A stretch of 64,000 nt of DNA from Eledone cirrhosa (Eukaryota), in the NCBI GenBank assembly GCA_964016885.1, contig OZ024753.1, forward strand, positions 38,626,001-38,690,000, written 5' to 3'. Both the position numbers and the translations under genes were made by a program. Below the pieces are notes generated by a model. It did not search any database and was not told the origin of the DNA. It saw only the letters and a list, made by a program, of their open reading frames with translations. Below, in pieces: positions 5,579 to 64,000 of this stretch (position 1 is the first letter of the stretch; each line of letters begins with the position of its first letter).

Positions 5579-5619
5579 GATAAAGTTAAAACACTATGAC
5601 TTATTATATAAACAAATCA

Positions 5620-5810
5620 CTATCCAGACAGCCTCCAAAAGTAATGGTTGTATTTTAAAGGGTACGTCAAACCTATTTGTAAAACTGTTATATATTGTAT
5701 TTTGTCTGATGAAGGCATACCATAATTTAATGTGGTATCCTTGAAATATGTATAATGAAATAAATATGGTTTTATAAATATAGTTTCCATTTATTAATAT
5801 CGTATATATA
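5620..5810 (+). mobile_element. Family A mini-PLE (HHR-bearing pLTR-like) copy
   Basis: Homologous to 20577-20742, 21062-21345 and 24567-24700; ends at aatatcgtatata. Confidence 0.8.
5698..5762 (+). ncRNA. Minimal type I hammerhead ribozyme (family A)
   Basis: tattttgt CTGATGA agg-c-ataccata/tgtggtat-cct-t GAAA tatgta TA atgaaata. Confidence 0.7.
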
Positions 5811-5813
5811 TCT

Positions 5814-5997
5814 GGCGGTGGATTGGCAGTATCGGTAGAGGGTCGGACGCCATGCTTTCCAGCATAGTTACGTCCCTTTACGATCTGAGTTCAAATCCCG
5901 CCGAGGTTGACTTTGCCTTTCATCCTTACGGGGTCGATAAAATAAAGTACCAGTAATGCACTGGGTAATTGCTGGCCTTGTGCCAAAAGTAGAAACA
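5814..5997 (+). mobile_element. tRNA-derived SINE family 1, full length, with TSD
   Basis: A-box-like tggcagtatcgg, B-box gagttcaaatccc, central ctttgcctttcatccttacggggtcgataaaataaagtaccag (resembles the Meta-domain, from memory); TSD attaatatcgtatatat at 5793 and 5998. Confidence 0.85.
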
Positions 5998-6007
5998 ATT
6001 AATATCG

Positions 6008-6038
<31 letters not shown>

Positions 6039-6139
6039 AGCACTTTCCCTCGTGCTTTAAACCAACGTATATTTGTATACATACCTGGGTTTAAACCACG
6101 AGGAAAAGTGCTCAATACTAATGTGGAGATTATCATATA

Positions 6140-6325
6140 ATTGTTTCTACTTTAGGCACAAGGCCAGCAATTACCCAGTGCATTACTGGTACTATATTTT
6201 ATCGACCCCGTAAGGATGAAAGGCAAAGTCAACCTCGGCGGGATTTGAACTCAGATCGTAAAGGGACGTAACTATGCTGGAAAGCATGAGTCCGACCCTC
6301 TACCCATACTGCCAATCCACCGCCC
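6140..6325 (-). mobile_element. tRNA-derived SINE family 1, full length, with TSD
   Basis: Near-identical reverse complement of 5814-5997; TSD ttatcatataat at 6130 and 6326. Confidence 0.85.
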
Positions 6326-9218: not shown

Positions 9219-10474
9219 CCACACACACACATATATATTTGAGTTCAAACCCCGCCAAGGTTAGCTTTATCTTTCATCCTTAAGAGGTCGATAAAATAAA
9301 GTACCAGTAATGCACTGGGGTAGATTTAATCGACTTTCCCTACCCCCAAAATTGTTGGCCTTGTGCCTAAATTAGACACCAATATATATATGAAATAAAA
9401 ACTTGTCTCACACCTTATTTTAAGGTAAAACAAGGTGGTTTCCTGTTAGGGATCAAAGGTGTGCGGTCGAAGGTGAAGAAAGGAAATGTTGCACGTGCAA
9501 TATCTCTGTCACACCCCGTGTAAATTCGTTTAATGACCTCACTGATAAAACAATGACGTTATAGATACTGTCTGATAGTGTAGCTGATGAGGTCAACCCT
9601 GATAAAGCAGGAGGGCTCTTTCGAATAAGGAGCCACATGACAGACATGTTAAAGGGTTACTACGTTGTATCTGTTGCCCCAAAAGTTTACGAATGGTTCA
9701 GGTATACCTAATTTTAAATAGACACACAAGGTAGAAGCAATTGCGTTGGTAGAAGCAGAGGAAGTATTGTTAAATCGACGGATGCTTTACTTTTTAGATA
9801 GCTAACTTCCATTTTGCAAAGTTCAATTTTCTAGTTGAGCTAAATTGAAATTTTATGAGTGTTGTTTGGCGAGGATATGGATAAACCTTCCATGACAAAA
9901 GCCCCATAAGACAAAAAAAACAAAAAACCCACAGGACAAAAGCCAGAGCAGACTAAGATCCTACCGGAAAAATCCTCTTTCTCTCCTACCGAACAAACAC
10001 TCACATAGTAAAATCTAAAACAGTAAAAATAAACAACAAAGCCTCTTTATAGTAAGGTAGTATAGTTAATACGAATCATTGTGAAATATATAATAAAAGA
10101 CCGATATATTTAAAAAACCCGCTACAAGGCAGTAGAAATATATAGAGGTTAATAGCCCTGAAATATGTTGAAATATACTGGTTAAAACATTACTTTGTTT
10201 TGTTTTATTTGTCATCCTTTGGCCTTTGTATGTTGAACTAGCTTTTAGAAACTTATCAGTCTCATATATAGTATTTTAATAGCTAACATTATGAAATATA
10301 ATTTATTTACCTGAGGAAAATAAACTAAAACCTATATTCAAGTTACTCTACTACCCCAAGTATCGAGTACTCTGTCGAGAAATGGTCTTACCAGTTCCAA
10401 ACTGAATCTATCCTGATATATATATATATATATATAATATATAAGATCAAAAGATGGTTAAAGGAGTTCCATGT

Positions 10475-10543
10475 ATTTTATTATGCGCATTTCAAAAACA
10501 AACATCATCATGCAATAATATTTGTGTTTTCATCAGATAAAAC
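10475..10543 (-). ncRNA. Minimal type I hammerhead ribozyme (family E, intact arm)
   Basis: Minus strand: gttttat CTGATGA aaac-acaaatattatt/gatgatgtttgt-tttt GAAA tgcgca TA ataaaat. Confidence 0.75.
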
Positions 10544-10663
10544 AGGAGAACATGATATGAAGGCTAAAAAACACTTGTGGATAGTGCAGTTTTAAATCAA
10601 CATATGTTGATTTAAAACTGCACTATCCACAAGTGTTTTTTAGCCTTCATATCATGTTCTCCT

Positions 10664-10730
10664 GTTTTATCTGATGAAAACACAAATATTATTGCATGAT
10701 GATGTTTGTTTTTGAAATGCGCATAATATG
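10664..10730 (+). ncRNA. Hammerhead ribozyme (family E), stem I damaged by a local duplication
   Basis: CTGATGA 10671-10677, GAAA 10714-10717, tgcgcaTA; the 3' stem I strand is replaced by duplicated tgcgcataa(t/c)atggaat. Confidence 0.55.
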
Positions 10731-10986
10731 GAATTGCGCATAACATGGAATTCCTTTAACCATCTTTTGATCTTATATATTATGTATACTCCAGTCCTAC
10801 ACACTGTAGAGTGCTTCTTATCCGATATCTGCATTGCTTTATTGTACTACAATAAAACTCACCTCCTACATATATATATATATATATATAAATGAAGTGA
10901 TTCCGTCGGAAAAGTCCAAGAAAAAAGAGTGCTCTATGTAGGTAACAGAGCTTAATAGTTATGTATTAAACAACATAAGGCAATTA

Positions 10987-11047
10987 TTTCATTTACCAAT
11001 GGTTTCTTAAAAGCAAAAACATTTTGCTTTCAATCATCAGAATGAAA
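10987..11047 (-). ncRNA. Type I hammerhead ribozyme (family F)
   Basis: Reverse complement of the 11142-11202 motif. Confidence 0.8.
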
Positions 11048-11141
11048 AAATCCTGGCGTATTTATTGAGTTTGGATTTTAAAAAAACCCACAAAAAACCC
11101 AGGTTTTTAAAAATCCAAACTCAATAAATACGCCAGGATAT

Positions 11142-11202
11142 TTTCATTCTGATGATTGAAAGCAAAATGTTTTTGCTTTTAAGAAACCATTGGTAAATGA
11201 AA
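11142..11202 (+). ncRNA. Type I hammerhead ribozyme (family F)
   Basis: tttcatt CTGATGA ttgaaagcaaaa tgt ttttgcttttaa GAAA cca t tgg TA aatgaaa: 7-bp stem I, 12-bp stem II, canonical core. Confidence 0.8.
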
Positions 11203-11231
11203 TAATTGCCTTATATTGTTTATTACATAAC

Positions 11232-11312
<81 letters not shown>

Positions 11313-11461
11313 ATAGATATGTCTACACTCCGGAATGCAGAAGGATCAGGAACTGAGTTTCTTCAACTATTCTTCCATAACTCGTTGAGTAACCCCTCAC
11401 CGTACGTCAACTCTATCCAGTGTAGTAATTAACCATTACTGCATCCAGGATAATCTTATAC

Positions 11462-11490
<29 letters not shown>

Positions 11491-11496
<6 letters not shown>

Positions 11497-12182
11497 AGAT
11501 TTGAATGGATACAGTTTAGTTGAAAGGAATTTATTGACACGTGTTTCTATAACAGTTACATAACCTAAAACAGCTATCTACAAACTTTTAGTTATGCAGA
11601 CATTCAATATTTCAATGTTATTATTTACTGTCATTTCATCAGAATAATATTACTGAGGACCTATTTAGTTTTTATAGAGAATATTAGGAGGGAGGGGTGA
11701 AGTTGTTAGAAGAATAGTTGAAGGAGTGGTTTTTCGATAGCAGTGAGAATTCTTGGTGGCAGTGAGTAATTAGATTCCCATCTGATGGGAATCTAATTAC
11801 TCACTGCCACCAAGAATTCTCACTGCTATCGAAAAACCACTCCTTCAACTATTCTTCTAACAACTTCACCCCTCCCTCCTAATATTCTCTATAAAAACTA
11901 AATAGGTCCTCAGTAATATTATTCTGATGAAATGACAGTAAATAATAACATTGAAATATTGAATGTCTGCATAACTAAAAGTTTGTAGATAGCTGTTTTA
12001 GGTTATGTAACTGTTATAGAAACACGTGTCAATAAATTCCTTTCAACTAAACTGTATCCATTCAAATCTTTCTATTTTTCTCCGGATTACATTTGGAACT
12101 ACAACTGGAACCGTCGAGCAAACTCTACGTGAGCTGATAATCTACTGTGTGTAATATTTATATTACAACACAACGGAAAATA

Positions 12183-12186
<4 letters not shown>
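11491..12186 (+). mobile_element. Family G palindromic mini-PLE: 292-bp arms, 1-nt spacer, plus tail
   Basis: 11491-11782 and 11784-12075 are reverse complements (catc T gatg centre); tail 12076-12186; (TA)n on both sides. Confidence 0.9.
11915..12038 (+). ncRNA. Hammerhead ribozyme with a large branched stem II insertion (family G); mirror copy at 11528-11651 on the minus strand
   Basis: ttatt CTGATGA a-atgacagt ... actgttat-a GAAA cacgtg TC aataa; two internal hairpins inside stem II. Confidence 0.6.
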
Positions 12187-12260
<74 letters not shown>

Positions 12261-12794
12261 CTGACGTAACGGCCGCAGCTCAGCTCTCGGGGTCCTGAAT
12301 CTTTTCATATATATATCCAGGTCGATTTCATCAATTTTCCTCTTTCTATAATTCTACTTTATCTTGTACCTGAAATAGAAATCAATATTTTACTAGCAGG
12401 CTGTATCGTTGATTGAACATCAGAGTACTCATACCTGAAACATATGGAGGTCCATTTCATTCTATACTGGTGCCCATACCACTGAATAGAATGTGGGACC
12501 CGTTGGTCACTCAAACACTTGATGAGGCTGGTAGGATGATCAAAACTTTACCAGATATAACACTGCTTATTTAATTCTAACTAGATGTCCGTTAAAACGT
12601 ACACACACATACACATACACATACACACAAACACATGCACACATATACAGAGTCTATCAAGCAAAGAAAAGAAATGCGAACATTGTAAACCAGAAGTGCT
12701 AGTCTTGACATGACCTCTCCCAATTGAACTGTCATCCTGTATTTATGTCCAGTACGATAGGTTTATTCAAACATTGGTGTGTCATATATGATAG

Positions 12795-19966: not shown

Positions 19967-20205
19967 ATTATCGAGAATCGCAACTTCGGCTCACGAAATA
20001 ACGAAAAACAATCTCCGAGATGTGTGGCAAAATGCTCAATGGTTCGGATGAACCAGAGCTATAACTAACGTTTAATACCAAACACACTGAGACGATGGTT
20101 AAACAATCATTCGCACCGCCAAAAAAAACGACCAAGTAATTCGGGTCAAACAAATAAAAATATACATGATTGAAAAATTATATATATATATTACATCATA
20201 GTAGG

Positions 20206-20375
20206 GAGTTAGTGCCCGGCGGCTGAGTTCTTGCCGTTTAGAAATGCTGTCAAAGCAGTAAGAGCTCAGTTGTCGGGCCCTAACTCTCAAATATATTTAT
20301 ACTCTACTATCCCAGATATCGAGTACTCTGCTGAATAAATAGTCTTACTACTTTAAAACTAGTAACCTGGATCTA
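20206..20375 (+). mobile_element. Family D-related island: short inverted arm plus tail
   Basis: Imperfect arms 20206-20234 and 20258-20286; tail actctactatcccagatatcgagtactc related to 10345-10417 and 28104-28177. Confidence 0.6.
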
Positions 20376-20391
20376 TAATATATATATATAT

Positions 20392-20828
20392 ATATACGAT
20401 ATTAAACAAATGGAAACTATATTTATAAAACCATATTTATTTCATTATACATATTTCAGGGATACCATATTAAAAATATGGCATGCCTTCGTCAGATAAA
20501 ATACAATATATAAACAGTTTTATAAATAATTTTGACGTACCATAATATAAGCAACCATTAAATTAGGAAGCTGCCTTGGTCGCTTATATTATGGTACGTC
20601 AAAATTATTTATAAAACTGTTTATATATTGTATTTTATCTGACGAAGGCATGCCATATTTTTAATATGGTATCCCTGAAATATGTATAATGAAATAAATA
20701 TGGTTTTATAAATATAGTTTCCATTTGTTTAATATCGTATATCTACTCCAAAAACTTGTCGAGTGCTTTATATCAGTTATAAAATATTTACTTGTTGTAA
20801 CCCAACAATTTTAAATAAAACTTTTGCA
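20392..20828 (+). mobile_element. Family A palindromic mini-PLE (166-bp arms, 19-nt spacer, plus tail)
   Basis: 20392-20557 and 20577-20742 are reverse complements; tail 20743-20828 with ACTC 20745 ... GAGT 20761; (TA)n on both sides. Confidence 0.9.
20631..20696 (+). ncRNA. Minimal type I hammerhead (family A); mirror copy at 20438-20503 on the minus strand
   Basis: tattttat CTGACGA agg-c-atgccatatt ttt aatatggtat-ccct GAAA tatgta TA atgaaata. Confidence 0.75.
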
Positions 20829-20845
20829 TATATATATATATATAT

Positions 20846-21045
20846 ATATACGATATTAACAAATGGAAACTATATTTATTAAACCATATTTATTTCATTA
20901 TATATATTTCAAGGACACCAAGTTAAATTATGGTGTGCTTTCATCAGACAAAATATAATATAGATCAGTTTTATAAATAAATATTGACATACCCTTAACA
21001 AATGCAACCATTACTGTTGGAAGCTCCCCGATAGTGGAGTTGCAC
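20846..21045 (-). mobile_element. Family A copy with HHR at 20891-20955
   Basis: Minus strand: tattttgt CTGATGA aagc-acacca taatttaact tggtgt-cctt GAAA tatata TA atgaaata. Confidence 0.75.
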
Positions 21046-21061
21046 ATATATATATATATAT

Positions 21062-23050
<1,989 letters not shown>

Positions 23051-24566: not shown

Positions 24567-24571
<5 letters not shown>

Positions 24572-24767
24572 ATTAAATAAATGGAAACTATATTTATAAA
24601 ACCATATTTATTTCATTATATATATTTCAGGGATATCATATTAACAATATGCTATGCCTTCCTCAGACAAAATACAATATAAACAGTTTTATAGATAAAT
24701 ACTTGTCGAGTGCTTTTATATCAGTTATAAATATTTACTAGTTGTAACCCAACAATTTAAATATAAC

Positions 24768-24771
<4 letters not shown>
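24567..24771 (+). mobile_element. Family A island: inverted HHR segment (24567-24700) joined to the forward tail (24701-24771)
   Basis: Minus HHR 24609-24674: tattttgt CTGAGGA aggcatagcatattgttaatatgatatccct GAAA tatata TA atgaaata; (TA)n on both sides. Confidence 0.8.
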
Positions 24772-25570: not shown

Positions 25571-25871
25571 ATGGAAACATTGTTTCCTTGGTCCGATTTG
25601 ACGAAAGTCGATCGAAAAAAAAATATATATATATTTCTGACGGATTTACTTCATTTATATATATATACAAAATGATGGAAACATTGTTTCCTTGGTCCGA
25701 TTTGACGAAAGTGGATCGAAAAAAAAAAATATATATATTTCTGACGGATTTACTTCAGTTATATATATATATATATATATATACAAAATGATGGAAACAT
25801 TGTTTCCTTGGTCCGATTTAACGAAAGTCGATCGAAAAAAAAAATATATATATTTCTGACGGATTTACTTC

Positions 25872-25902
<31 letters not shown>

Positions 25903-26203
25903 CAAAATGATGGAAACATTGCTTCCTTGGTCCGATTTGACGAAAGTCGATCGAAAAAAAAAATATATATATATTTCTGACGGATTTACTTCATTTATAT
26001 ATATTTACAAAATGATGGAAACATTGCTTCCTTGGTCCGATTTGACGAAAGTCGATCGAAAAAAAATATATATATATATTTCTGACGGATTTACTTCATT
26101 TATATATATTTACAAAATGATGGAAACATTGTTTCCTTGGTCCGATTTAACGAAAGTCGATCGAAAAAAAAATATATATATATATTTCTGACGGATTTAC
26201 TTC

Positions 26204-26234
<31 letters not shown>

Positions 26235-27270: not shown

Positions 27271-27504
27271 ATATATATATATGTGTGCGTGTGTGTGTGT
27301 GTGAAAGTGTGTGTGAATGTTGGACATGTCAGTTCTGATGATAAGTGTCACTGTTGATCGAACATCAGAACTATCTACTAATCACCTAATCACCTATCGA
27401 TGAGTACCACTTTATCATATAACAATAAATATTGAATGATCTTCTATAGATGGACACAAACGGATTATCTATAAAGCAGTTATATATACATATATACATA
27501 TACA

Positions 27505-27640
27505 TAGAAATAGCCGTCGAAACGGCTTGAGCTCTGCCGTCGGGGTCATACTTTTTCCTATTTCCCACTCTACTACCCTAAGTATTGAGTACTCTGGTGC
27601 GTTATGGTCCATCTGGTTCCTTACCACAATTTCTTTGTTA
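27505..27640 (+). mobile_element. Family D forward fragment plus tail
   Basis: Matches 28045-28177; a tail-only copy lies at 58034-58108. Confidence 0.7.
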
Positions 27641-27985: not shown

Positions 27986-28174
27986 AACGAGTAGGACCCC
28001 GACGGCTGAGCTCAAGCTGTTTCGACGGCTAATTCTGAGTCCAGAATTAGCCGTAGAAACGGCTTGAGCTCAGCCGTCGGGATCCTACTCGTTCCTATTA
28101 CCCACTCTACTACCCTAAGTATTGAGTACTTTGGTGCGTTATGGTCCACCTGGTTCCTTACCACATTTCCTTCG

Positions 28175-45632: not shown

Positions 45633-47302
45633 TCATATATTGAGAAAACCTTTTCTTGATTTCACTTCTACGCTTGTTCTGCAGGTTGTCCTCACATTGC
45701 AGTGTCCAGCTGTAGTGTCCAGCTGCAGTGTCCAGCTGTAGTGTCCAAACATATTCGGAATGAACCGGTCCTGATACCTGCTCTCCATTATCGCAATGTC
45801 TTGATGAAACCTTTCTCCATGTTCATCAATGATGTCTCCTAGGTTATCCGGGAAGAAATCCAGATGAGAATGGAAGAAATGAAGCTTGAAGGGCAGTCGT
45901 GGACCCAGAGCTCGATAATTTTGTATCATGGTTTCAACAGTTTCTTCATAGTTGTCTGCACGGTGATTTCCAAGAAAGTTCTGTGTCACATCAACAAATG
46001 ATTTCCATGCAGCAGTCTGGAAATGGTTTAGTGTTTTAGCAAACTCCCTATCATTAACCAGCATATGAATCTGAGCACCATTCAAAACCCCTGCTTTTAA
46101 TGTTGCTCCAGATACCACACCAGCCAACTTCTTACTCAAGTACTGAAACCCACTTCCTGTATGATCCATGCCTTTTATGAAATTTTTTACCAAGCCTAAT
46201 TTGAGATGTAATGGAGGCAGGAATACTTTTTCTGACTCTATTAGTGGTTTGTACTGGCACTTGAACCTGCCTGTAACATTCTTTGGTCTTGCTGGCCACT
46301 TTTTAAAGTAGTGCTCCACATCTGCTCTAGTATTCTACAAACACAGAAAGCACATATGCTTTGTGTAACCAGTCTGAGGACCTAGAGTAAGACTAATTAC
46401 TTTGAGATCCCCACATATTTTCCACTGGTACTTTTGGTACTCAATAGAGGAAAGCAAAATTTTCATTGTTTCATAATGTTCAGCCATATTTGTTGCAGGA
46501 GGAAGCTGATTTCCTATATGTAGGAGGATGGCTTTTAGAGTATTTTTGCCTGAATCAATGAAAAGCCTCCAATCAACTGAATCAGATTTGCAGAGTTGTT
46601 GCATGAGAGACTCTGCATCATGACAATAGCAAAAATTATTTTCCATTTTGAAAAAAGCAGAAAGTTGTTCATGCTGATGATGAGCAGTTGTGATGCTAAC
46701 GCCGGGTTCCAAGCAGGTTACGCTGCTTCAGTCTTGATCCCAGTACCTCTACCTTTTCTTTAGACAAATCTAGGTCCCTAATAAGATCATGAAGAACTCC
46801 CTGGTTAAATGATATAGGTTGAGTTGGCTCTGGTTAGTTTTGATAGTCATGATCCATAGAGCTGCTACTGGAATCAGAATACATGCTTAGCTCGAGTTCA
46901 GCAGGTGGAACTGGAACTGGTTTTTTTTTTGCTGTGTATTACTGGTCAGATTGTTGAAGGGATATTGGGGTATTGTATTGTAGTTCGTGTCTTGACAGTT
47001 ATTCCTTTGGTGTTTGTAAGGCAGAAGTAACAGTATATTATTATACTTTCTGGGTTCTTGCCACACCATTGGTATGGCAAAAGACAAACCAGAGCTTCGC
47101 TTTCCAATCAACCATTAACTCAGGTGATTGACACTATATGAGGTGCCCGTTTCTTGTCTTGGTCTCCTAATGGGATTTTAAAGTTGGCTTTGTAGTTTAA
47201 TCAAACTGCTTTGGTGATAGGTTTCTTAATGCTTTCTGGAGTGAAGAGTCCACAAATATAACAAAATTGGTTGGGATCATTTACACATTTGCAGCGTTCC
47301 AT
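45633..47302 (-). pseudogene. Transposase pseudogene (Chapaev3-like)
   Basis: MERCKCVNDPNQFCYICG, FAIPMVWQEP, WRLFIDS, WKICGDLKV, GYTKHMCFLCL, PPLHLKLGLVKNF, HSHLDFFPDNLG..DEHGERFHQDI; stops and frameshifts. Confidence 0.85.
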
Positions 47303-49734: not shown

Positions 49735-51823
49735 GTTTGTTTATTTCCACTGGATTTGTCTTAAACTGGTTAAAATGTTTAGGGAATTATTGGCTTATTA
49801 ATGATTTGACTCCTACTGATTTTTTGGACAGATCCTGTTTATGTCTTTGTTACTCTGTTGGTGAATAATGGAGACAGATTCTTAGCTATAATATTATCAT
49901 GTTTAGGGCGGTGGATTGGCAGTATCAAAAGAGAGTCGGACACCATGCTTTGCAGCATAGGGTCATGCCCTTTACAGTCTGAGTTCAAATCCCGCCGGCG
50001 TTAACTTTGCCTTTCATCCTTACGAGGTCGATTAAATAAAGTACTAGTAATGCACTGGGGTAATTGCTGGCCTTGTGCCAATAGTAGAAACAATAATATT
50101 ATCATGTTTAGTCCTATCTAAGCTATTCTATGATTTGCTCCTGTACAATGGGCAAATTCCTTTCATGTCTATTTCTATGAGGGTCTTATATTTCTCCATG
50201 GCTTCTTTGTATACTCTGATTCTGTCTCTTTGATTGTAGCCAGAGAACTTCATGCGATTGATGAAATGTTTGATGTGTCTTTCCAGTTAGGTCGCTCATG
50301 GGGGACATATTCTTCATCACTCTTACCAAACCTGCGATCAGAATATTAAAATTAGCACTATTGGATATTGCCGAATTTTTTAGTATAACGTATTTGGAGA
50401 TCATGGGTTTAGTATAATGTGAGTGGAGAATTTGGGCCCTCTCGTTTATAGTGTTTAACCAGAGTTCAGTGTCTAATACTGGTAATCTATTGTTAGGGTG
50501 TTAAGAAGGGTAGTCAATAGTTACAGTTATGCTCTAGTGTATGGCGTTAGCAATCTGTTGGATGCTCTCCATTGTGTTATTTTTGAGTTCAGGTTTATTG
50601 GTACTCTCTTGTAGGGGTGTTCTTATTATTATATTGATATCGTCTACGTAATGAGAGTACACGACGAGGGTTATGGAGTTATCTTATAGGAGTTCTCTGA
50701 GTTTCTTAACCACCATACCATAAATAGTTTGGCAACGTTGGAAGTTATGCAGAGATTATGGTGGTGGTGGGGGGGGGGGGGGTCTACCTCTTATAGGTCT
50801 ACTGGGGCAGAAACAGCTAAGGTCATGATTATCTAGGTACTCAATGTCATAAGTAAGTCTAAGTAGGAGGCCCAGTACATCCATGTCAACGTTGCAGAAC
50901 TCCACTTCACTCTCACTGATTATTTCCACACATTTTTCCACAGCAAAATCAATGTCAATGGATGGGTACAGAGATATTACATCCATACTGCCTATCATGC
51001 AGTTTGTTAAGTTTTCGTTGTTGTTGCATTCATTGATTCTACTAAGGAAGTCCTCTGTGCTGTCACATATATCTGGGGACATCTTAATTATGGGGCATAT
51101 AATCATAGAGCGGAAGTAGGGGATCCTGTAGTTACTGGCAATATTAGCTCCTCATATAGGTCTTGTTGGTGGTCCTGTCATAGGGTCGTTAGTTGTTTTA
51201 TGGTCTTTGCGGAGTCCATATAAGGGTGGTATGTCATACTTGGTTTTAGGATGTTGGTCCACATCATCATGTGAGCATTGAGGATCTTTTCTCTCTCCTC
51301 ATGTGTCTGTGGTGTTGTTTCGCTAGTGTTGATGATGTGGGGTAGCATAGCCTTGATGTAATTCGGCATGCTGTCTATTGACATCCTACTGGATTTGTCT
51401 TTAAGTAGACACATTACCTCACCATCCTTAGTGGCCACATGAGGCTAAGTAGGCCTTCTGAAGGTTTTCTTCCAAGTTGTTGAATTTCTGGTCTGTTTTG
51501 TCTCCTAGTGTTTGTTCTACTACTTGTCTAAGTTTATTCCTATCTATAGTAAACACTGCCTCTGTTTGGTCTTCTATTTGTTGTGGTATAAAAACCCTTT
51601 TAATAAATGGTAATTTAGTAGGGTATATTTACTTAATCTTGTATGTTTTGTAAGCTGGGTTGAAGAACAGGTTTTCTAAGGGGTTGTCATTAAATCTACC
51701 GTTATAATTGTGGGTACTATTATTATTATTATAGTTGTTATTGTTTTCCCTACTGTTAACGTTGTTATTGTTATTTCTGTTATGGTTGGTACATGAATTG
51801 TTGTTATTATTATAGTTATTGTT
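49735..51823 (-). pseudogene. Penelope-like reverse transcriptase pseudogene, left copy
   Basis: KDKSSR, STEDFLSRI, SMDVISLYPSID (motif A), VYSHYVDDI (motif C), DYPS..PNNRLPVLDTELW, HYTKPM, MKFSGY...GICPLYR; motif B' deleted; frameshifts. Confidence 0.8.
49907..50092 (+). mobile_element. SINE family 1 inserted in the PLE
   Basis: Full length; 19-bp TSD ataatattatcatgtttag at 49888 and 50093. Confidence 0.9.
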
Positions 51824-51963
51824 TCCAGCATAGTTACGTCCCTTTACGACCTGAGTTCAAATCCCGCTGAGGTTGACTTTGCTTTTCATCCTTACAGGGT
51901 CGATAAAATAAAGTACCAGTAATGCACTGGATAATTGCTGGCCTTGTGCCTAAAGTAGAAACA
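51824..51963 (+). mobile_element. 5'-truncated SINE family 1 with TSD
   Basis: TSD attattatagttattgtt at 51806 and 51964; the same insertion is mirrored at 58203-58342. Confidence 0.85.
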
Positions 51964-53465
51964 ATTATTATAGTTATTGTTGTTATATATATGCATGAGG
52001 CTAAGTAGGCCTTCTGTAGGTTTTCTTCCAAGTTGTTGAATTTCTGCTGTTTTGTCTCTTAGTGTTTGTTCTACTACTTGTCTAAGTTTATTCCTATCTA
52101 TAGTAAACACTGCCTCTGTTTGTCATCTATTTGTTGTGGTATAAAACCACACATAAATATATATATATACATATAAATACATTATGTCATTTGTATGTTA
52201 AAATAATAAAATAAAATTATTTCTGCAGTGTCAGCTCGATATTGAACCTCTCACTTCGTTACGAAAGAATGAGTACCCATTACTCCTACCAACGAAGCAA
52301 CCAGAGAATTTACTGAAAACTTTATATATTTATATATTTAAAGTAATAAAACCTTTAATTTATTTATTTAATTATAAATACGGAAAGTGGAGCAATAGAA
52401 GATAAGTAAAACTTCAAAACAATAATAATACCCGACATAGTTTTGAGAATAATAGTGTAAAATTAAAATTGACACCGGTTTCGGAATTTCACGTTACCCT
52501 TGACCTCTCGCTCCCACGGACATTTTTGAGATTAAAGAGAGGTGGGAGAGTAAATTAATTGTTTTATTTATATATCAAACAAGGAACAAGATGCCGGGAA
52601 AGAAATTAAAAAATTTGCTATGGTTAACAAAATAAAATTGAGCCATTACCCCTCCCATGATGCAACAGTGGAGGTAAATACTTTGACGATTTAGCGACAT
52701 CAGTTCCCAAAATTTCACCGAGCCGAAATCTCAAGAACGATAACTCCGTTTTTACTTAATCGCAAAAATCGGTGCAAAAAAGTTTCACATTTGTATGAAC
52801 CTATGTATCTCTCTCTCTCTCTGTATATGTTTATATATATATATACATTTCAGTTATAAATATTTACTAGTTGTAACCCAACAATTTTAAATATAACTTT
52901 CCATATATATATATATATATAAAGGGTAAACAAGGTTCAATGAATAAATCAAAGAATGAGTTTTACAATAGATTCCTCTGTATTATATGTAGGTTTTTTT
53001 TTCATCTTTCAATATTAAGGTATATAAATATTGAGTTTTGTCATATTACTCGCTACCATGACTGAATCTTAACCATCTACTATGTCAGGGTATGTCATGC
53101 ATCATCTTATTTTATCTTAATTATATATATAAAGAGAGCGAGAGAGAGAGAGAGAGAGAGAGCAGTGGCCCTCCGTCGGTTACGACGACGAGAATTCCTG
53201 TTTTTATTACTAAGAAATAAAATTTGACTAACAGAAAGGCATGAACGACACCAGATCTTTTTTTATAACCTACCCAGGGTTGTTTTGAAGCTGTAACCTG
53301 AGTTTCATTTCTTTCTGTGTGTGTGTGTGTGTGTGCCCTAAAATAGTCCCTTATTCCTATATTAGAGTGTGTGCCTGTGTAATATTAGAATCTATTAGAC
53401 TTTCATCACATACGTGTCTCTCTATGTCAATCAAATTACCTACTTACAATGGTTGGCGTTATATG

Positions 53466-54079: not shown

Positions 54080-55430
54080 TAAAATACATGATAAACACAA
54101 AACGTGTTTGCATTGCAACAGATAGTCAGGTATTAATGAAATAAACTAATTAAAGTGAATACAATTTGTCTGTCTCGATATATATATATACATACGTCAA
54201 CTTTACAGACACATATATGTGAATAAGAATCGTAATAGACTAATTAATAAACTTTGCCTACTGAAACATTTTTCACCTATTTTTGCGAATGAAACTCTGG
54301 ATTACAGGTTCAAATCAACCCTGGGCAGGTGAGCAACATCGTAAAAAAGGTTTTGGTGCCGTTTATGCCTTTCTTAGTCAATAATATAAACATTAATTCT
54401 CATCGTCGTAACCGACGGAGTGCCACTGCTCTCTCTCTCTTTATATATATATATATATATATATAAACGGAAAAAATGAAACGAAATTTCATTTCCCACT
54501 CTTAGTACGGCTGTTACTTAAATATAAGTATGTACACGTACATACATATATGTGTACAGACGTACAGTAGTATGTATAAATATAAACACAAATGCACACA
54601 TATATATATGTACGTATGGATTCACCGAACATTTATTATAATGCTCGGTGTGTTTGTAAACAAACATCCCGTATTAAGCCGTAGTGTCTAGCAACCATCG
54701 TATATATATATATATGTTAAGTAATTATATGTGTTCGGATATATATCAAATACAGAGAGAGATACATATAAACTACACAAAAGACTGAAACTTTTTTGCA
54801 CCGATTTTTGCGATTAAGTAAAAACGGAGTTATCGTTCTTGAGATTTCGGCTTGGAGAAATTTGGGGAACTGATGTCGCTAAATCGTCAAAGTATTTACC
54901 TCCACTGTTGCATCATGGGAGGAGTAAAGGCTCAATTTTATTTTGTAAACGACAGCAACTTTTTAAATTTCTTTCCCAGTATCTTGTTCCTTATTTGATA
55001 TAAGTAAATAAATAAAACAATTAATTTACTCCCCTCCTCCCTTTAATCTGAAAATCATATTACCGTGGGGGCGAAGGGTTTAACGTAAAGCCCCCACGGT
55101 AATTTGATGTTCAGATTAAAGAGAGGTGGGGGGAGTAAATTAATCTTTATATTTATTTACTTATATCAAACAAGGAACAAGATGCCGGCAAAGAAATTTT
55201 AAAATTTGCTATGGTTAAAATAAAATTGAGCCTTTACCCCTCCCATGATGCAACAGTGGAGGTAAATACTTTGACGATTTAGCGACATCAATTCCCCAAA
55301 TTTCTCCGAGTCGAAATCTCAAGAACGATAACTCCGTTTTTACTTAATCGCAAAAATCGGTGCAAAAACGTTTCAGATTTATATCTCTCTCTCTGTATTT
55401 GATATATAAATTACTTAACTTAACATATAT

Positions 55431-57286: not shown

Positions 57287-58109
57287 AAGTAATTATATAT
57301 ATATATAGAGAGAGAGAGAAAGAGACACATATAAATATGATACAATAACACAAAAAACTTTCCCTACTGAAACTTTTTTGCACCAATTTTTGCGATTAAG
57401 TAAAAACGGAGTTATCGTTCTTGAGATTTCGGCTCGGAGAAATTTGGGGAACTGATGTCGCTAAATCGTCAAAGTATTTACCTCCACTGTTGCATCATGG
57501 GAGGGGTAATGGCTCAATTTTATTTTGTTAACCACAGCAAATTTTTTTAATTTCTTTCCCAGCATCTTGTTCCTTGTTTGATATAAGTAAATAAATAAAA
57601 CAATTAATTTATACCTCTCCTCTCTTTAATCTGAACATAAAATGTCCGTGGGAGCGAGAGGACAAGGGTTACGTAAAATCCCGAAACCGGTGTAAATTTT
57701 AATTTTACACTATTATTCTCTAAACAATGTCGAATATTATGATTGTTTTGAAGTTTTATTTATCTTTTATCGCTGTACTTTTCGTATTTATAATTAAATA
57801 AATAAATTTAAGGTTTTAATACTTTGAAATTATAAAATTTACAGCAAATTCTCTTGTAACTTCGTTGGTAGGAGTAATGGGTATTCATTCTTTCGTAACG
57901 AGGTGAGAGGTGCAATATCGAGCTGGCACTGCAGAAATAATTTTATTTTATTATTTTAACATACAAATGACATAATGTATATATATATTTATATAATTTA
58001 ATATATTTATATATATATATATATATATATATCCACTCTACTACCCTAAGTATTCAGTAGTGTGGTACGTTATGGGCCACCTGGTTCCTTACCACATTTC
58101 CTTCGTTCC

Positions 58110-58183
<74 letters not shown>

Positions 58184-58202
58184 CAACAATAACTATAATA
58201 AT

Positions 58203-58342
58203 TGTTTCTACTTTAGGCACAAGGCCAGCAATTATTCAGTGCATTACTGGTACTTTATTTTATCGACCCCGTAAGGATGAAAGGCGAAGTCAACCTCAGC
58301 GGGATTTGAACTCAGATCGTAAAGGGACGTAACTATGCTGGA
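58203..58342 (-). mobile_element. 5'-truncated SINE family 1, mirror of 51824-51963
   Basis: Same truncation point and same TSD (aacaataactataataat at 58185 and 58343). Confidence 0.85.
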
Positions 58343-60045
58343 AACAATAACTATAATAATAACAACAATTCATGTACCAACCATAACAGAAATAACAATA
58401 ACAACGTTAACAGTAGGGAAAACAATAACAACTATAATAATAATAATAATAGTACCCACAATTATAACGGTAGATTTAATGACAACCCCTTAGAAAACCT
58501 GTTCTTCAACCCAGCTTACAAAACATACAAGATTAAGTAAATATACCCTACTAAATTACCATTTATTAAAAGCGTTTTTATACCACAACAAATAGAAGAC
58601 CAAACAGAGGCAGTGTTTACTATAGATAGGAATAAACTTAGACAAGTAGTAGAACAAACACTAGGAGACAAAACAGACCAGAAATTCAACAACTTGGAAG
58701 AAAACCTTCAGAAGGCCTACTTAGCCTCATGTGGCCACTAAGGATGGTGAGGTAATGTGTCTACTTAAAGACAAATCCAGTAGGATGTCAATAGACAGCA
58801 TGCCGAACTACATCAAGGCTATGCTACCCCACATCATCAACACGAGCGAAACAATACCACAGACACATAAGGAGAGAGAAAAGATCCTCAATGCTCACAT
58901 GATGATATGGATTAACATCCTAAAACCAAGTATGACATACCACCCTTATATGGACTCCGCAAAGACCATAAAACAACTAACGACCCTATGACAGGACCAC
59001 CAACAAGACCTATATGAGGAGCTAATATTGCCAGTAACTACAGGATCCCCTACTTCCTCTCTATGATTATATGCCCCATAATTAAGATGTCCCCAGATAT
59101 ATGTGACAGCACAGAGGACTTCCTTAGTAGAATCAATGAATGCAACAACAACGAAAACTTAACAAACTGCATGATAGGCAGTATGGATATAATATCCCTG
59201 TACCCATCCATTGACATTGATTTTGCTGTAGAAAAATGTGTGGAAATAATCAGTGAGAGTGAAGTGGAGTTCTGCAACGTTGACATGGATGTACTGGGCC
59301 TCCTACTTAGACTTACTTATGCCACTGAATATTTAGTTAATTATGACCTCAGCAGTTTCTGCCCCAGTAGACCTATAAGAGGTAGACCCTCCCACTATAA
59401 CCTCAATGGCTCAAAGTACTCCCATAGGAAGATGGAAACAATGATCAGGTGAGAAAAATGGTCGCACATTCCATAGGGGCTAGTATTAAAACTTCCCTAA
59501 AGGGCCACATGTTTAAATTTAATGAGAAAATCTACACCCAGAATGAGGCAACAGCCATTGGCGTCATCATAGCTGGCAATGTTGCCAACTTATTTATGGT
59601 ATGGTGGGAAAGGAGACTCAGAGAACTCCTATAAGATAACTCCAAAACCCTCGTCGTGTACTCTCATTACGTAGACAATATCAATATCATAATAAGAACC
59701 CCTCCCCACAAAAGAGTACCTATCAACCTGAACTAGATAGTAACGCAATAGAGAGCATCCAGCAGATAGCTAACTCCATACACCAGAGCATAACTGTAAC
59801 TATTGACTACCCTTCCAAACACCCTAACAATAGACTACCACTATTAGACACGGAACTCTGGTTAAACACTATAAACGTGAGGTCCCAAATTCATCCAGTG
59901 AAAACCAATCCAAACCAAACAGTGAGTGTGTTTTATTATTACTATTCCTGCCAATATTATAACAATATGACCTTCCCCAAATATAACAATATTTGTTTCA
60001 ACACACAACTCCATATCTCCATATCAAAAACCTTTCAAAACAAAT
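58343..60045 (+). pseudogene. Penelope-like reverse transcriptase pseudogene, right copy, with 3' end
   Basis: SMDIISLYPSID, FKFNEKIYTQNEATAIGVIIAGNVANLFMVWW (motif B'), VYSHYVDNI (catalytic D lost), DYPSKHPNNRLPLLDTELW; deletion at ~59892 joins the family I tail. Confidence 0.8.
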
Positions 60046-63753: not shown

Positions 63754-64000
63754 TATTATTATGTAATAAACAACATAAGGCAATTATTCCATTTACCAGT
63801 GGTTTCTTAAAAGCAAAAGGTTTTGCTTTCAATCCTCAGAATGAAAAATCCTGGTTTGTTTATTGAATATGGATCTAAAAAAAAAACAAAAAAAAAAAAC
63901 TTTCTGTTGCCTACATAGAGCACTCTTTTTTCCTGTTGCCTACATAGAGCACTCTTTTTTCCTGTTGCCTACATAGAGCACTCTTTTTTCCTGGACTTTT
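63750..64000 (+). mobile_element. Family F island: inverted HHR segment plus tail with a triplicated 29-mer
   Basis: Homologous to 10891-11085; ctgttgcctacatagagcactcttttttc three times from 63904. Confidence 0.8.
63787..63846 (-). ncRNA. Type I hammerhead ribozyme (family F)
   Basis: Minus strand: tttcatt CTGAGGA ttgaaagcaaaa cc ttttgcttttaa GAAA cca c tgg TA aatggaa. Confidence 0.75.

Follow-up and report, generated by a model that had tools for sequence, protein, structure and literature searches.

Palindromic islands with predicted hammerhead motifs inside TA microsatellites of Eledone cirrhosa: likely passengers of Penelope-like retrotransposons

Introduction

How does one microsatellite come to hold several unlike sequence islands end to end, and what are these islands? 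We asked this of a train in a 64,000-nucleotide stretch of Eledone cirrhosa DNA (assembly GCA_964016885.1, contig OZ024753.1, positions 38,626,001 to 38,690,000 of the forward strand), here called the window; coordinates below are positions in it. A first-pass annotation made from the letters had described, at 10345..12310, at least five different islands separated by (TA)n, and had proposed that each split a TA tract which then regrows and offers new targets. Distinct islands with TA spacers are indeed present there in the sequence. The islands are separate copies of short repeats, most with a predicted hammerhead ribozyme, inside TA microsatellites. In our judgement these repeats, each made of an inverted arm, a direct arm and a tail, were probably put into TA from a non-coding RNA by a reverse transcriptase-endonuclease of Neptune type.

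Results

Parts of the train

The train (10344-12307) consists of six pieces: a tail-only copy of family D, an E copy (+), an F copy (-), an orphan island, a G copy (+) and a D-like fragment. Its parts and spacers are as follows.

10344..10416, plus strand: tail-only (5'-truncated) copy of family D, with matches at 20300, 27567, 28104 and 58035
10417..10440, no strand: TA spacer, seen in the sequence
10441..10603, minus strand: family E inverted arm, predicted type I hammerhead with core at 10536 and cut after 10482
10604..10775, plus strand: family E direct arm, predicted hammerhead (core at 10671) that a 17-nt duplication at the cut site disturbs
10776..10869, plus strand: family E tail, 94 nt, with a hairpin at its start; attributed to E from its position and on the analogy of H1 and F
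10870..10891, no strand: TA spacer; the E and F tails on its two sides stand tail to tail
10892..10955, minus strand: family F tail, 64 nt; the same tail occurs with the F arm at 63757-64000
10956..11094, minus strand: family F direct arm, predicted hammerhead with core at 11040 and cut after 10994
11095..11234, plus strand: family F inverted arm, predicted hammerhead with core at 11149
11235..11309, no strand: TA spacer, (TA)37 to (TA)37.5
11310..11464, plus strand: orphan island, probably just the tail of a copy whose family is unseen
11465..11493 (about), no strand: TA spacer, (TA)14 to (TA)14.5
11493..11783, minus strand: family G inverted arm, 290 of 290 aligned bases the same as in the direct arm
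11784..12073, plus strand: family G direct arm, doubtful as a hammerhead ribozyme, with the core and stem II at 11924 and a weak stem I
12074..12185, plus strand: family G tail, 112 nt, assigned by position only
12186..12259, no strand: TA spacer, (TA)37
12260..12307, plus strand: fragment like the D arm end, 90% over 20 nt to 27993-28012

The first-pass list was right about the islands and the (TA)n, left the E, F and G tails unassigned and omitted the sixth piece (12260-12307). The three palindromes are far beyond chance. Their computed extents are 10429-10788 (E), 10956-11233 (F) and 11491-12075 (G), and arm against arm we count 160 matches, 2 mismatches and one indel in E, 127 matches and 6 mismatches in F (centre loop counted in) and 290 matches without a mismatch in G. 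Arm divergence is unfit as a clock because the arms may come from different templates. Comparison of the window with itself shows that the tails are parts of the palindromes and form one kind of insertion with them, laid out as (TA)n, inverted 5'-truncated arm, direct arm, one-sided tail and (TA)n. Since D copies with palindrome plus tail exist at 20198 and 27981, 10344-10416 is a tail-only copy. The units measure 135-400 nt and the tails 64-112 nt, and the longest stop-free frames in the islands have 29-59 codons. Coding tails were considered and rejected: by eye, the position of the frame against the tail hairpin differs between families, and the open frames are short.

No second copy of the orphan island was found across the 64-kb window, nor any other copy of the G tail within it. 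The orphan island shares 15 identical nt with the G arm (shuffle p 0.007); as a homologue of the G tail it was rejected, that similarity not being significant (p 0.15). The fragment at 12260-12307 also matches 27490-27547 (E-value 1.4e-6), partly through TA. Left of the train, 10030-10231 belongs to a further repeat family (summed depth ~3 x 10^4 in read run X1), other copies of which run into an inverted repeat of 10110-10140; the arm here is cut at 10231, and the hammerhead scan gave no match to this family.

Copies elsewhere in the window

A second train had been claimed at 20206-21345; it is real and begins slightly earlier. It and two informative single copies are listed here.

20198..21345, plus strand: second train, with D palindrome and tail (20198-20371), H1 palindrome and tail (20397-20828) and H1 pair and tail (20851-21345)
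24568..24771, plus strand: H1 copy, no palindrome, a 130-nt inverted arm joined directly to a truncated tail
63757..64000, plus strand: F copy, inverted arm followed by the tail start in three repeats; truncated by the end of the window

The H1 alignment (11 segments from 9 places) has two fixed 3' ends, one at the arm end and one at the tail end, and 5' ends that vary. H1 copies take the form of palindrome plus tail, inverted arm plus truncated tail (one copy), tail only or arm only. The H1 pair at 20851-21345 has (TA)9 at its centre and arms (20851-21240) with 137 matches and 32 mismatches, and may represent two events. The longest copies of F, H1 and D begin at like places, and the triple repeat of the F tail start lies at 63903-64000. 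Head-to-tail units and direct partial tandems of pLTRs were sought in the window and none was found; window copies are single or head to head. Together, the E, F, G, D and H1 families occupy 4293 of the 64000 bases (6.7%) of the window, which was chosen for them.

Several neighbouring features deserve mention in their own right. At 5630-6324 a SINE-like element comes after an H1 arm end, with the arm-end sequence repeated behind the element like a target-site duplication; next stand TA, a small palindrome and an inverted copy of the SINE-like element, giving in all an imperfect palindrome of 510 bp. The motif CACTATC lies 15-20 nt from the 5' start in E (10602-10630) and in the two longest H1 copies (21025-21050, minus strand, and 5610-5635); it is possibly a promoter or start signal. 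Tandem units of 105-119 nt with TA between them occupy 25656-26215, and their 3' end resembles the F tail end by eye. A 670-bp imperfect palindrome (87%) at 54740-55408, without a match in the hammerhead scan and with related copies at 52180-52787 and 57368-57977, is possibly a DNA transposon. On the minus strand at 45633-46727 stand two adjoining open frames of 233 and 130 amino acids that have no Pfam match and that resemble a broken transposase-type gene.

Predicted hammerhead ribozymes

A scan of the window for type I minimal hammerheads gave 12 matches, against a mean of 0.04 and a maximum of 1 in 50 shuffles. Nine are clean, lie in E, F and H1 and have a short palindromic stem III; the remaining three (two in G, one in H1) are doubtful. 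G has the core and stem II with a weak stem I, and the D family has no canonical core. To judge by their sequence, the E, F and H1 motifs would be active ribozymes, with the predicted cut site inside the unit, 38-49 nt before the arm end. The hammerheads of metazoan Penelope-like elements (PLEs) are described as being of the type I minimal form (PMC4209133, PMC6765202, PMC6466107).

The predicted fold of an E dimer is a double hammerhead with intermolecular stems I and III, and several minimum-energy folds of monomers or dimers (F, most H1) differ from the hammerhead fold. Full palindromic transcripts are predicted to fold as long hairpins, and such a hairpin would mask the predicted ribozyme. 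Three common E variants in helices (10503, 10519 and 10543) swap G-U and A-U with pairing kept, in our own reading of the fold, and the E core has no variant at 5% or more among those listed in run X1. Rfam at the gathering score returned nothing in the whole window; a search with one H1 unit found no hammerhead at E-values up to 10, and the matches listed below threshold are microRNA-type and other hairpin noise. The E/H1 hammerhead pattern matched neither viral nor metagenome contigs (0 in each).

Two further observations concern the E motif. The 17-nt duplication in the direct arm (10714-10752) sits at the predicted cut site. In the inverted arm, position 10483, which faces hammerhead U16.1, reads A>G in 23 contigs of run X6, another sample, which make up 16% of the summed depth there, versus 0.008% in X1; this is at most a hint of A-to-I editing of the hairpin or of enrichment of ribozyme-dead copies.

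Read contigs covering E and D

Contigs of 4 of 14 runs were aligned to 9400-10645, with F, G and the orphan island lying outside that stretch. In run X1, which may come from the source sample, the depth is 3 on the unique flank and 5-9 x 10^4 on the D tail, where 68 contigs extend upstream from 10344 with a consensus that by eye resembles the D arm end. Over E the summed depth in X1 (which, as throughout, is not a copy number) falls from 1.6 million at the arm 3' end to 0.73 million at the 5' end (~45%), the gradient that 5' truncation of a retrocopy gives. Among the 13 of 33 E joints listed, one side varies over 10473-10570 and the other falls at 10601-10604 in 11; a fixed 5' end of the E unit is thus likely, although it is partly reference-dependent, since 10 of these 13 joints miss intervening letters and the aligned stretch ended at 10645. 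A rare longer form extends upstream of this 5' end in at least six X1 contigs and one X5 contig. E is also present, without the unique flank, in runs of organisms B and C; X4, X5 and X6 have no flank coverage, so that they showed no empty allele. At all 10 of the listed variable sites the two E arms agree in their allele, which is consistent with one template or one source.

Neptune-type elements as candidate partners

The window itself holds two decayed copies of one PLE family.

50107..51983, minus strand: decayed Neptune-type PLE reverse transcriptase (RT) remnant; candidate partner class, without a sequence link to the islands
58183..59897, plus strand: the family's other decayed copy, 96.9% over 1211 nt

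Both are 72-77% identical or similar to Octopus vulgaris proteins, and their relatives read as an RT, a CxxC-type cysteine linker and, at the C-terminus, a GIY-YIG domain, which is the Neptune layout (PMC8557442); the assignment to Neptune rests on reading the sequences of these relatives, as Pfam did not recognise the RT fragments and gave a weak RVT_1 match on 1 of 6 relatives. The remnants were not seen to carry island arms. Beside the first one, 51994-52146 is a partial tandem duplicate (96%) of part of it (51438-51593), as expected of PLE partial tandems.

Among 15 Neptune-type loci from metagenomes, two have a minimal hammerhead downstream of the ORF, followed in one by (TA)9, and in a third a hammerhead-like core precedes (TA)38. 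The scan found no hammerhead in the remaining 12, some of which end too early to show one, and one of the 15 has a direct pLTR repeat. The hammerhead stands ~130-140 nt behind the ORF. The likeness of islands to these foreign 3' ends is weak, 1 of 15 comparisons reaching p 0.002 with the shared core included. A tblastn search of the islands with 23 PLE-type proteins gave nothing better than an E-value of 5.8, and an ORF for a PLE RT with GIY-YIG was sought in the islands and is absent. Because they have no such ORF, the islands are not autonomous PLEs; with units of 135-400 nt, no long ORFs and apparently fixed 5' ends they are likely non-autonomous, and likely passengers of Penelope-like retrotransposons.

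Could the islands nevertheless be nothing but the ends (pLTRs) of ordinary autonomous PLEs that suffered heavy 5' truncation, without any short RNA of their own? Strong 5' truncation is a known trait of PLE insertions (PMC8557442), a hammerhead ~130-140 nt behind a Neptune-type ORF would hide that ORF in short arms, and a few E contigs do extend upstream, with the same sequence in two organisms. The depth of E, however, stays at ~45% up to the 5' end, and there the contigs that run on number at least six in X1, against 68 for the much rarer D tail. The like starting places of the longest F, H1 and D copies also argue against truncated ends, as do the lack of any better protein match in the search above and the 29-59-codon stop-free frames, and we consider this explanation unlikely.

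A proposed model of insertion by double priming

For the passenger reading, we infer an RNA intermediate, a partner of the Neptune clade and double priming. A master copy would make an RNA of 135-400 nt that spans an uncut hammerhead. A PLE protein would bind this RNA, probably at the tail hairpin, and nick both strands of (TA)n; one nick would prime reverse transcription at the tail end and the other at the boundary of arm and tail. The two cDNAs, each full or 5'-truncated, would then be joined at their 5' ends, and the outcome would be a palindrome tailed on one side, an arm fused to a tail, or just a tail. As TA would be kept on both sides, the tract would still be a target and trains could build up. 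A PLE protein is reported to cut and extend both strands of AT-rich DNA and to use uncut RNA, with two RT start sites defining the PLE tail (PMC11167929), and the inverted 5'-truncated copy, the one-sided tail and the (TA)n bias belong to the described anatomy of PLEs (PMC8557442).

Double priming explains the palindromes with one-sided tails, the variable centres and the inverted arms that hold sequence missing from the direct part. The key to the mechanism is the H1 copy at 24568-24771. The arms of one insertion are near-identical in E, G and the first H1 pair, so that a palindrome might also be imagined to form by snap-back of a single cDNA of the same elements onto itself. Yet the inverted arm at 24568-24771, like that at 63757-64000, holds hammerhead sequence missing from the direct part, and because it does, snap-back could not have copied it without a later deletion. 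This makes snap-back very improbable.

Insertion into TA tracts and independence of the pieces

The claim that the pieces are insertions into TA was borne out by the flanks. Of 19 uncut copies, 16 adjoin a TA run of at least 8 nt at their 3' end, against a background of 1563 of 53620 non-TA positions (2.9%), a contrast that is inflated as the copies were delimited by eye, partly using TA runs. Neighbour pairs less than 100 nt apart number 7 among 20 copies, versus 1.6-1.9 expected on existing TA tracts (p 1e-4 to 9e-4), in a test biased by the definition of the families from the trains themselves. Regrowth of the TA tracts, which the first-pass annotation had ascribed to slippage, may have occurred in that way and, as also suggested there, might have inflated the genome. 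A plant precedent is MuTAnT, with ~15 TA units per flank reported at occupied sites versus 9 at empty ones (PMC4486113).

Flanks of this kind, together with the hairpin shape, would suit TA-targeting miniature DNA transposons, either MITEs or foldback elements; such elements exist in plants, MuTAnT being an example (PMC4486113). Terminal inverted repeats at both ends of a fixed structure were not found in the window copies, whose tails are asymmetric, whose centres vary and which are truncated. The one-sided tail, the variable centres, the 5'-truncation gradient, the tail-only copies and the hammerhead motifs largely refute this alternative, which keeps hardly any probability.

Recurrence of the whole train as one unit was looked for in the window and not seen, and each match between the train and the rest of the window stays within a single family. 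Copies of D and F stand elsewhere in the window apart from their train neighbours, and the centres of the other E copies differ and their 5' truncation is graded; we conclude that the train is a set of independent insertions and not one unit. Read contigs place D and E in other contexts genome-wide. That the train is instead a composite or duplicated unit, or that its palindromes are assembly artefacts, might be suspected from the perfect 290-bp mirror of G, which lies outside the read-contig alignment, and from the lack of another window copy of G and the orphan island, but is negligibly probable given that D and F recur with other neighbours, that one X1 contig crosses the E centre and that E occurs in runs of two other organisms.

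Discussion

The first-pass reading of the islands as insertions into TA has held; it had missed the hammerheads, the link between tails and palindromes and the retroelement nature of the islands. The islands are real and largely explained by known PLE biology. With EN+ PLEs (Neptune, Penelope/Poseidon), as described in PMC8557442, PMC11167929 and PMC4209133, they share the inverted, 5'-truncated copy placed head to head, the one-sided tail, the type I minimal hammerhead with palindromic stem III and the (TA)n or AT-rich targets. They differ from those descriptions in that they lack an ORF, have units of 135-400 nt whose 5' end is apparently fixed and were not seen to form a pLTR pair in partial tandem, and their tails, at 64-112 nt, exceed the 30-40 nt reported there for PLEs.

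Non-autonomous PLE derivatives have already been described, among them MRC1 (PMC8557442) and the non-LTR retrozymes (bioRxiv 10.64898/2026.07.22.740005). The latter are likewise short and non-coding, carry a type I hammerhead and are proposed to be non-autonomous derivatives of PLEs. In that account, however, retrozymes form head-to-tail tandem arrays, whereas the islands are dispersed, stand head to head and have the cut site inside the unit; being scattered and head to head, they fall outside that definition of a retrozyme. The non-autonomous elements of the Chlamys group, such as MRC1, are also short PLE passengers, of a clade with a microsatellite bias, but they are algal, often head to tail and for the most part without a canonical hammerhead in the description given (PMC8557442). 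MuTAnT likewise inserts into (TA)n and has long TA runs on both flanks; it is a DNA transposon, and the account of it in PMC4486113 describes no hammerhead, tail or truncation gradient as far as we could see.

In cephalopod genomes, PLEs are reported to make up 6.83% of that of O. vulgaris, which also has 893 recently active unclassified SINE families (PMC13282606); the supplement of that report does not mention hammerheads or palindromes, and none was seen in its main text. For the giant squid genome 235 hammerhead matches are given, unlinked to elements (PMC6962438). In the literature searched, hammerhead elements that are palindromic and dispersed were nowhere described for octopus; repeat libraries (Repbase, Dfam, the Zenodo library of PMC13282606) may contain them. 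The islands would easily be misfiled as MITEs, unclassified SINEs or microRNA hairpins.

What is new here is the short head-to-head form, its abundance and a possible role as a source of double-stranded RNA (dsRNA). Nature has here provided a very large collection of copies from which to study how the inverted copy and the tail arise, the step of PLE transposition that is understood least. The anatomy of these copies agrees with in vitro work in which both strands of the target were cut and then extended, from two start sites (PMC11167929). In octopus, near-perfect dsRNA loci and hyper-editing are both reported to reach exceptionally high shares; the same source ascribes the frog dsRNA case in part to a palindromic repeat and, as far as we could see, gives none for octopus (PMC5625713). 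The island palindromes would supply ready-made double-stranded RNA and are a concrete candidate for the source in octopus. More speculatively, octopods may carry very abundant, unrecognised, Penelope-driven short retroelements whose normal product, made by two-strand TA priming, would be a near-perfect hairpin of 130-290 bp. Each insertion would then multiply its own target, and the hairpins might mask their own ribozyme and be a main source of the unusually high dsRNA potential and A-to-I hyper-editing reported in octopus.
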